From Yuukianura sp. NJ FZ-2021 (Eukaryota), in the NCBI GenBank assembly GCA_046563655.1, contig CM102288.1, positions 682,001-746,000 on the forward strand: a DNA stretch of 64,000 nt. Direction: 5' to 3'. The translations under genes were made by a program, and so were the position numbers. Under the pieces are notes generated by a model that did no database searches, was not told the DNA's origin, and was given only the letters and a program-made list of their open reading frames with translations. How positions within the stretch are numbered: the first letter of the stretch is position 1; the number at the start of each line of letters is the position of its first letter. This document shows positions 62,620 to 63,706 of this stretch, one piece after another.

Positions 62620-63197
62620 ATGGTGCTCAAAGGAGCCTTGTTCTTTGGAGTCTTTGCCGCATTTCTAGTGGTCGGAAGTGTCAATGCGCATGATCATTCG
62701 AGCGCTGGCCATGGGCAGGGTCAAAGGTCACAAAAACAAGATGTCGGCCTATTTAAAATTGCAGGGGTTGACCAGGTATCGAAAAATCCTTTCGCGGGCA
62801 GAAGATGGGGCAGTGACACTGCTCAACATGACAGAAAGCAACGGCATTTAAGACCTATGTGGTACGGAAGTCCGTAAATTTTCAACACCACAATACAATT
62901 TCAAAATGGAAATAAAAAGTTTCATTTCATATTGTTCATTACATTCATGATTCAGATTCGAAATTGTAATTTTCAATTAGAATTCACAGGTTTTAATTAC
63001 GTAGGGCCGAAGTCGAAGAAAGTCAACGTTCACAAGAGAAAGATGACGGAGAAATTCCAGCCCAACGGATTTCCAGCAGACTTCTGAAAGCTCCTGGCGT
63101 GACCTTGACATGGGGTCCGGGCAACAACGTTCAAGATGATTTGCACCACTTCAGGAATCAACGACACTTAAGACCAATCTGGTACGAAATTCCATAG
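62620..63197 (+). CDS. Secreted two-repeat peptide precursor (148 aa spliced; 85 aa if the intron is retained)
   Basis: Signal peptide MVLKGALFFGVFAAFLVVGSVNA. Exon 62620-62873 splices (CC|GTAAAT...TAG|G) in phase to 63005-63197, which encodes a homologous repeat. AATAAA at 62911 and 63231. Confidence 0.72.
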
Positions 63198-63706
63198 AAG
63201 TTGTTAACTACACTGGAAGGAAAAAATGAAAATAAAGAATTTCACTCCATCAATTCAATATTGATATTCTTTTTTTAATTAGATTTTATAGGATTTATGT
63301 ATTTATAATAACATCTATAGGGTGAAAACGAAACGTAGTCAAAGAGTACAAGATAAAGATGCTGGCGACATAGTAGCTGATAGTACACGTACTGACGGCT
63401 GGATTTTGAAAGATCCCCTAGGCGCCATGAGATGGGGCGGGAACATTCAAAATTTTCGTTTTCAGTACAGAAATCGACGACATTTACGACCAATGTAGTA
63501 CGGAATTCCGCAAACTTGCAATGTAAATACTAGGAAAATATTTCATGTAATGTAATAAATTTTTTATGTACAAGGTTGACAATTTCTATTAGAAGTCGGT
63601 TTTCTCCGTGTTTACTACGTTGTATCACGTTGCCCCAGTTCAATTTGTAAATTAATTATATAAAATTAATAAAACTAATCATATCATGTCTTCGGCTTGT
63701 AAATGT

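Follow-up and report, generated by a model that had tools for sequence, protein, structure and literature searches.

The window analyzed in the present study, a stretch of 64,000 nucleotides from Yuukianura sp. NJ FZ-2021, contains a small gene on the plus strand that appears to encode a secreted peptide precursor (hereafter, the peptide gene). Its open reading frame (ORF) of 85 aa starts with an ATG at 62620, ends with a TAA at 62875-62877, and has a signal-like N-terminus. The nearest gene, located head to head with the peptide gene at a distance of approximately 1.06 kb, encodes a Cys-rich defensin-like protein. Farther along the minus strand are a tRNA-Asn(GTT) gene (60667-60740), a gene that we take to be alkylglycerone-phosphate-synthase-like (57585-60100), and a BTAF1/Mot1 gene (45859-55220), the best match of which was from the springtail Orchesella dallaii (260 bits; the next, 212). 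Low-complexity tandem repeats with Cys/Val-rich pseudo-ORFs on both strands occupy 43668-44562. Just beyond the window end, two long ORFs of 224 and 657 aa abut with a 4-nt overlap; they presumably represent an intronless, springtail-type gene resembling ionotropic receptors, which a frameshift may have split in two.

The features of the peptide gene are summarized in Table 1. The initial annotation described a precursor with two repeats, and the 85-aa ORF, the second repeat, an AATAAA behind each repeat, and an in-frame splice giving 148 aa are all present in the sequence. However, a repeat finder detected three tandem copies of the 3' part of the gene, with spacings of 320 and 316 nt; the third lies 316 nt further on, at 63321-63498. 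When copy 2 was used as a query against the genome (98.7 Mb, 22 contigs), copy 3 was found with E=5e-7 and copy 1 with E=0.006, so that the repeat stands far above the chance level. The exact pattern R-(K/N)-(Q/R)-R-H-L-R-P occurs three times in the genome, each time at this locus. Copy 2 lacks a Met. Copy 3 begins after TAG/G at 63320, in the same phase as copy 2; past its premature TAG, a ghost YGIP is followed by CAA at the stop position of the other copies. The reading frame from the junction to the motif is preserved in all three copies, although their lengths differ.

Table 1. Features at the peptide gene locus. Positions are those of the window; slashes in splice sites mark the exon border. 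Splice-site percentiles come from a self-trained gene model and are a guide only.
Feature	Position	Strand	Remarks
Six-Cys CSab/defensin-like gene	61126-61560	-	Two exons, intron 61497-61381 (by eye); signal peptide, acidic C-terminal tail
Probable 5'-UTR intron, 82 nt	62529-62610	+	Predicted; percentiles among 483 predicted introns: 26th for donor AAG/GTAGAG, 60th for the acceptor
Start codon and probable signal peptide, 23 aa	62620-62688	+	Hydropathy 1.6-2.8 over residues 1-23; cleavage site placed by eye
Copy 1, coding part	62703-62877	+	Ends RKQR-HLRPMWYGSP-stop; RKQR 62833-62844, decapeptide 62845-62874
Candidate phase-2 donor AAG/GTCACA	62727-62732	+	25th percentile; most of copy 1 exchanged for copy 2, giving 99 aa
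Candidate phase-2 donor GTG/GTACGG	62862-62867	+	35th percentile; inside Trp-Tyr codons, giving 144 aa with copy 2
Phase-2 donor TCC/GTAAAT of the initial annotation	62874-62879	+	19th percentile; overlaps the stop, giving 148 aa with copy 2
AATAAA, copy 1	62911-62916	+	33 nt past the stop; 23 positions of the surrounding 28-nt block are identical in copy 2
Spacer 1 (3' UTR and 3' flank of copy 1)	62878-63004	+	GC 0.24; the final TACGTAG, at the duplication junction, is a candidate acceptor
Copy 2, candidate alternative last exon	63005-63197	+	Ends RNQR-HLRPIWYEIP-stop; RNQR 63153-63164, decapeptide 63165-63194; open for 63 codons
Candidate phase-2 donor CTG/GTACGA, copy 2	63182-63187	+	53rd percentile; could chain copy 2 to copy 3
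AATAAA, copy 2	63231-63236	+	33 nt past the stop
Spacer 2	63198-63320	+	GC 0.21; ends in weak in-frame acceptor 63320
Copy 3	63321-63513	+	Reads to RNRR-HLRPM; TAG at 63496-63498, where copies 1 and 2 have Trp (TGG)
AATAAA, copy 3	63554-63559	+	Not at the position homologous to those of copies 1 and 2
3' flank of copy 3	63560-63622	+	Homologous to the end of spacer 1 (TACGTTG vs TACGTAG); right end of the duplicated unit

Copy 1 runs on without a break from the codons of the signal peptide; as an acceptor, the AG at 62702, where the homologous segment starts, ranked in the 1st percentile. Alignment of the end of spacer 1 with the flank that follows copy 3 extended up to TACGTAG/TACGTTG (p=0.004 in comparison with shuffled sequences), and this spacer end also matched the end of spacer 2 (p=0.004, shuffles). 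It matched neither the DNA before copy 1 (p=0.24, shuffles) nor the acceptor of the UTR intron (p=0.58, shuffles). Given a start within exon 1 and a spacer 1 end that resembles the 3' flank but not the 5' DNA, we conclude from these alignments that the duplicated unit is the segment from mid-exon 1 through the stop, the poly(A) signal, and the 3' flank, namely, a partial 3' gene duplication. No significant match was obtained between spacer 2 and the last flank, behind copy 3 (p=0.59), which counts against this reading. The origin by exon duplication proposed previously was not upheld because the unit begins inside exon 1 and includes the UTR, the poly(A) signal, and the 3' flank; bounds of an ancestral intron or splice site, as in a classical exon duplication, were not found at 62702 or in the spacers, which consist of 3' UTR and flank. 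Whole-gene duplication with a lost signal exon was ruled out because the spacers match the 3' flank rather than 5' sequence. The acceptor of copy 2 sits at the duplication junction, where the AT-rich flank meets AG, and we infer that the junction itself created this acceptor.

We then compared the three copies for signs of selection. In all three copy pairs, pN was 0.10-0.12 and pS was 0.33-0.61 over the last 15 aligned columns, and pN was 0.33-0.56 outside these columns. In the tail, copies 2 and 3 differ at 4 of approximately 9 synonymous sites and 3 of approximately 30 non-synonymous sites. The pattern of substitutions shows a signature of purifying selection on the RxxR-HLRP(M/I)WYxxP tail. 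Gene conversion does not explain the conserved tail because pS is not lowered there. Fisher tests of the tail block, which was chosen after the alignment had been seen, gave p=0.006 for copies 1-2 and p=0.037 for copies 2-3 (rounded counts), and tests of the whole unit were weaker (p=0.04, 0.06, and 0.57; copies 2-3, 0.06). In simulations, a neutral block was as good in 1-24% of runs, depending on divergence. Both downstream copies remained open in 0.5-6% of runs of a neutral simulation that comprised substitutions only and ignored indels and ascertainment. A count of frame-preserving indels was dropped because gap placement shifted with the alignment settings.

The coding log-odds were 8.3 nats for copy 1, 19.5 nats for copy 2, and 7.4 nats for copy 3, and the GC contents were 0.50, 0.48, and 0.44, respectively (for the spacers, see Table 1). 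Copies 1 and 2 stop at the same codon, which is TAA in one and TAG in the other, and the distance to AATAAA is constant. The second repeat, which had been proposed to be part of the spliced product, is probably under coding selection, as judged from pN/pS in the tail, the highest coding log-odds of the three copies, and an exon-like GC content. We take this as evidence of moderate strength that copy 2 serves, or served until recently, as a translated terminal unit. The status of copy 3 is ambiguous, and it is probably decaying.

Splice sites were assessed with a simple gene model trained on approximately 470 kb around the locus, with the locus itself excluded. This model predicted 483 introns with a median length of 78 nt and recovered 10 of the 11 short homology-defined introns of BTAF1. 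An earlier model was discarded because it recovered only 1 of these 11. A comparison set of "terminal exons" (GTAA in 22/90) was not used because it was contaminated by internal exons. Joining 62873 to 63005 gives the 148-aa form in frame, through a phase-2 GT-AG intron of 131 nt (62874-63004). The statement in the initial annotation that splicing gives 148 aa stands insofar as this form is in frame and the best parse; however, it is one option among several because the donors at 62727, 62862, and 62874 are all in phase 2. The gene-model scores were 26.9 nats for the 148-aa form, 25.1 and 22.5 nats for two three-copy chains, 24.2 nats for the 144-aa form, 19.9 nats for the 99-aa form, and 15.4 nats for the unspliced form. 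The 148-aa form is the top-scoring parse by only 2-3 nats, and such gaps cannot pick the donor.

The sites of the candidate last exon are in frame, but weak (donors in the 19th-35th and acceptors in the 20th-23rd percentile of a self-trained model). The score of TCC/GTAAAT was equaled or beaten by 9.8% of 52,624 decoy GTs, and this donor overlapping the stop has no counterpart at the corresponding position of either copy 2 or copy 3. An in-frame stop that overlaps the donor was found in 88 of the 108 predicted phase-2 introns, and 63 of the 108 have a GTAA donor. The proposal that a stop codon inside the donor forms a special switch was therefore abandoned: the arrangement is ordinary, and this particular donor is weak. 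Acceptor 63004 (23rd percentile) is equaled by a rival 15 nt upstream; a rival that is at least as good was present in 25/483 predicted introns. Acceptor 63320 (20th percentile) has a rival 5 bits stronger 29 nt upstream, which was matched by 1/483 predicted introns; its stronger rivals are 63282 and 63291 (63rd and 77th percentile, respectively), and the rivals of 63004 and 63320 all run into stops. The weakness of these two acceptors counts against an alternative last exon. AATAAA is rare, occurring in 19/483 predicted introns and 283/3731 AT-rich tiles. Readthrough of the stop into copy 2 was ruled out because copy 2 lies in another frame behind several stops.

Peptide precursors usually consist of a variable propeptide followed by a conserved C-terminal peptide. 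The basic motif before the putative mature peptide is RKQR in copy 1, RNQR in copy 2, and RNRR in copy 3, and the minimal R-x-x-R is conserved in all copies. Both motif Arg residues are retained in every copy in spite of synonymous changes, and the residues between them differ, as would be expected of a cleavage site. The full furin consensus is R-x-K/R-R. It is present in copy 3 only; copies 1 and 2 have the minimal RxxR alone, which counts against the proposed convertase cleavage. Further residues are invariant among the copies (Q-R-x-Q, D-x-G, K-x-P, and W-G). The decapeptides have charges of +1 and 0, and the precursor has no Cys, is not Gly-rich, is not strongly cationic, and carries no amidation Gly or signal. 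Its AF2 model showed no fold (pLDDT 56), and the sole helix comprises residues 2-24, within the signal region. The original suggestion of a secreted precursor in which a basic motif and a C-terminal decapeptide are conserved is supported by the signal-like helix and by pN/pS in the tail.

In the 148-aa form, the chain continues past the first decapeptide to the RNQR of copy 2 before another dibasic or RxxR site is reached. Since no such site lies directly behind the first decapeptide, HLRPMWYGSP would not be freed as a decapeptide from this form, unless a single Arg is cut; one conserved Arg (Q-R) behind the first decapeptide could serve as this cleavage point. The two-sided bounding by dibasic or RxxR sites that characterizes a multi-peptide precursor was not found, and the assignment to this class was not retained.

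The claim that the peptide belongs to no known family is consistent with the results of searches of Pfam, of word-indexed proteins, of 1.84 billion representatives, of the Atlas, and of the PDB. Pfam gave no family for any of the three copies, and a word-indexed protein search gave no candidate for copy 1. The same type of search with an alignment of the copies, among proteins of 31-149 aa, yielded three candidates, none of them at E<=10; longer relatives were covered only by the search of 1.84 billion representatives. The sole match in that search, a repetitive protein of 3331 aa, was rejected on inspection as a summed-repeat artefact. The first matches in the Atlas (0.84 and 0.85) were within the range of shuffled sequences, and PDB sequences gave no match. 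A peptide of 10 residues can fall below the reach of these profile and sequence searches. Protein searches of the same genome returned only this locus and one unrelated chance match, and a profile search of approximately 470 kb around the locus returned only the three copies. The motif pattern with one mismatch had 35 matches in the genome against 21 for a control, and none of the 22 of these 35 that were examined resembled a precursor. An HLRPIW match near 10.46 Mb on contig C4 was rejected because it lies off-frame inside an RRM-domain gene, presumably of the ELAV/Sex-lethal type. Dispersed-looking repeats elsewhere in the genome translate to HFRP(H/Y)GLLLAYG or LNQSHLRPYF and appear to be unrelated to the peptide gene.

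A literature search, to which subscription papers were mostly inaccessible, found no publication on the HLRP motif. The motif is unlike the families named in PMC10051947. It does not appear to resemble those named in PMC4770511 either, and the supplementary precursor lists of that source could bear on its novelty. The sequence searches point to an orphan peptide family, so far from one locus in one genome.

The spacing of the Cys residues in the domain of the neighboring protein is C-x7-C-x3-C-x6-C-x4-C-x-C, with a short x6 loop. This gene had no Pfam match and no paralogue in the same genome. The predicted structure comprises a helix and two short strands (pLDDT 89.8); its best structural matches were drosomycin and ASABF as well as several other CSab peptides, all with a Z score of only 2-3, and a Foldseek search of the model returned nothing significant. 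The predicted fold and the head-to-head arrangement give a weak hint that the two genes form an immune pair. A kB-like site was not found between them.

Based on these results, we propose the following scenario. The ancestor would have been a gene with a single coding exon for a secreted precursor of approximately 85 aa, in which a signal peptide was followed by an unstructured propeptide of variable sequence, an RxxR site, and, at the C-terminus, the conserved decapeptide. The 3' approximately 320 bp of this gene (mid-exon, stop, AATAAA, and 3' flank) would have been tandemly duplicated twice, and the junction would have placed an exonic AG behind an AT-rich flank, yielding a weak acceptor. 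The default transcript would be cleaved at the first AATAAA and give the 85-aa form, and in some transcripts one of the three latent phase-2 donors of exon 1 would be joined to 63005, with the 3' end at the second AATAAA (99, 144, or 148 aa). Since copy 2 has no Met, splicing would be its only route to protein. Each mRNA would thus carry one decapeptide at a free C-terminus, either HLRPMWYGSP or HLRPIWYEIP, which may be released after RxxR by a furin-type or other convertase. Copy 3 may formerly have been used in the same manner and would now be truncated or decaying. The addition of copy 2 lifts the gene-model score from 15.4 to 19.9-26.9 nats. We give roughly even chances to this scenario, in which a 3' partial gene duplication was turned into an alternative last exon and the switch chooses which C-terminal decapeptide is made rather than one copy or two.

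The model of the initial annotation, in which the donor at 62874 is used, the product is 85 or 148 aa, and both repeats yield peptides, is a sub-case of this scenario and appears improbable. The intron is in frame, of the GT-AG type, and 131 nt long, the GTAAAT core occurs in 20/483 predicted introns and in one homology-defined intron of BTAF1, and the resulting form has the top score and keeps the whole first decapeptide. However, two other phase-2 donors outscore this one, the site is missing from copies 2 and 3, C at -1 with GTAAA was found in 1/483 predicted introns, and only 11% of predicted introns are this long; the first decapeptide also lacks a dibasic or RxxR site on its C-terminal side. 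A chain in which TG/GTACG donors join copies 1, 2, and 3 would produce a precursor with three repeats, 198 aa long (202 aa if the donor at 62874 is used), with the TAG of copy 3 as the true stop. Among the phase-2 sites, the Trp-Tyr donors score best (35th and 53rd percentile as a guide), the TAG of copy 3 falls exactly at the position of the Trp-Tyr donor, and the chains score 22.5-25.1 nats, near the best parse. We nevertheless consider such a chain very unlikely: acceptor 63320 would have to be used in preference to the stronger upstream rival that leads to a stop, TGG-TAC may persist simply as Trp-Tyr, and the stop and AATAAA retained in copies 1 and 2 are left unexplained.

It is also conceivable, although we lean against it, that copies 2 and 3 are dead 3' duplicates, that only the 85-aa gene is expressed, and that the splice sites are chance matches. 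This would agree with the weak acceptors and with approximately 6-10% of decoy GT or AG sites scoring as high. Copy 3 carries a nonsense change in the conserved tail and has lost the old stop and the homologous AATAAA, its GC content fits neutral decay (0.40-0.44 with AT bias), the whole-unit comparison of copies 2 and 3 gave p=0.06, and all AATAAA and stops could be inherited relics. In contrast, copy 2 has 63 open codons, a coding score above that of copy 1, and a GC content of 0.48. Furthermore, the excess of synonymous changes between the tails of copies 2 and 3 requires selection in at least one of them, and the frame from junction to motif survived length changes in all three.

Regarding function, we estimate that a role as a haemolymph defense peptide has approximately even odds, and a hormone-like signal and an uncut secreted protein are each rather doubtful. 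Whatever the splicing, the uncut product would be an unstructured secreted protein (of the cuticle, a glue, or a reproductive secretion) with the tail as a binding motif. The minimal RxxR of copies 1 and 2, the lack of an amidation signal, the other invariant residues, and the absence of a fold in the AF2 model are consistent with this possibility. However, the invariant Arg residues with synonymous changes around variable middle residues form the pattern of a cleavage site, and a variable propeptide with a conserved C-terminal peptide is the usual layout of precursors. We tentatively speculate that a previously undescribed springtail defense or signaling decapeptide family, H-L-R-P-x-W-Y-x-x-P, diversified through copies of the 3' end of its gene and without whole-gene duplication, with poly(A) use versus splicing selecting the peptide, copy 2 alive, copy 3 dying, and a divergent promoter shared with the defensin-like gene.

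The gain of introns by tandem genomic duplication has been described, including an "imprecise" form that uses latent splice sites (PMC3443670). Similarly, duplicated exonic DNA in the peptide gene would make an intron from latent sites and add coding sequence. However, the classical model duplicates an exonic AGGT (PMC3443670); here, the end of the gene was spanned, so that a stop and a poly(A) signal would lie within the new intron. If splicing holds, the locus is a compact example of an alternative last exon that arose when only the 3' part of a gene was duplicated, with a breakpoint that can still be read and copy 3 in decay.

As an antimicrobial precursor, the product may be compared with Drosocin/Buletin, from which furin releases a short C-terminal peptide; Attacin, Diptericin, and Baramicin are named alongside (PMC9233930). 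The signal peptide, furin-type site, and short Pro-containing C-terminal peptide are alike, and Buletin is likewise not cationic. In contrast to Drosocin, which has a full RVRR (PMC9233930), copies 1 and 2 have RxQR only, and there is no homology. The collembolan antimicrobial peptides in the homology-based catalogue of PMC10051947 are diapausin, Alo, diptericin, cecropin, and defensin, with 5-13 genes per species. The product of the peptide gene would similarly be a small secreted peptide of a springtail; however, without Cys, Gly richness, or a strong cationic charge, the precursor fits none of these five classes. The locus also provides two exact candidate decapeptides for detection and assays in a group for which this catalogue is short (PMC10051947).

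A layout of this general kind has already been described for insect neuropeptide genes. Locusta myosuppressin, Locusta neuroparsin, and Zootermopsis CNMamide combine a shared 5' part with duplicated alternative 3' coding exons (PMC4237046). As proposed for the peptide gene, the common 5' part of these genes is spliced to any one of several related 3' exons, which encode separate mature peptides, and the upstream exon of CNMa has its own in-frame stop, as found here (PMC4237046). The homologous tandem 3' units of the peptide gene each have a stop and a poly(A) signal, as in genes of the myosuppressin/CNMa type, although in copy 3 the stop is premature and the AATAAA is shifted. There is no sequence likeness, and the insect exons described in PMC4237046 are true exons with transcript support, whereas copy 2 of the peptide gene is a candidate exon. 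Moreover, copy 1 of the peptide gene is part of exon 1, the unit takes in the UTR and flank, and the acceptor lies at the junction, which distinguishes it from the insect genes as they are presented in PMC4237046.
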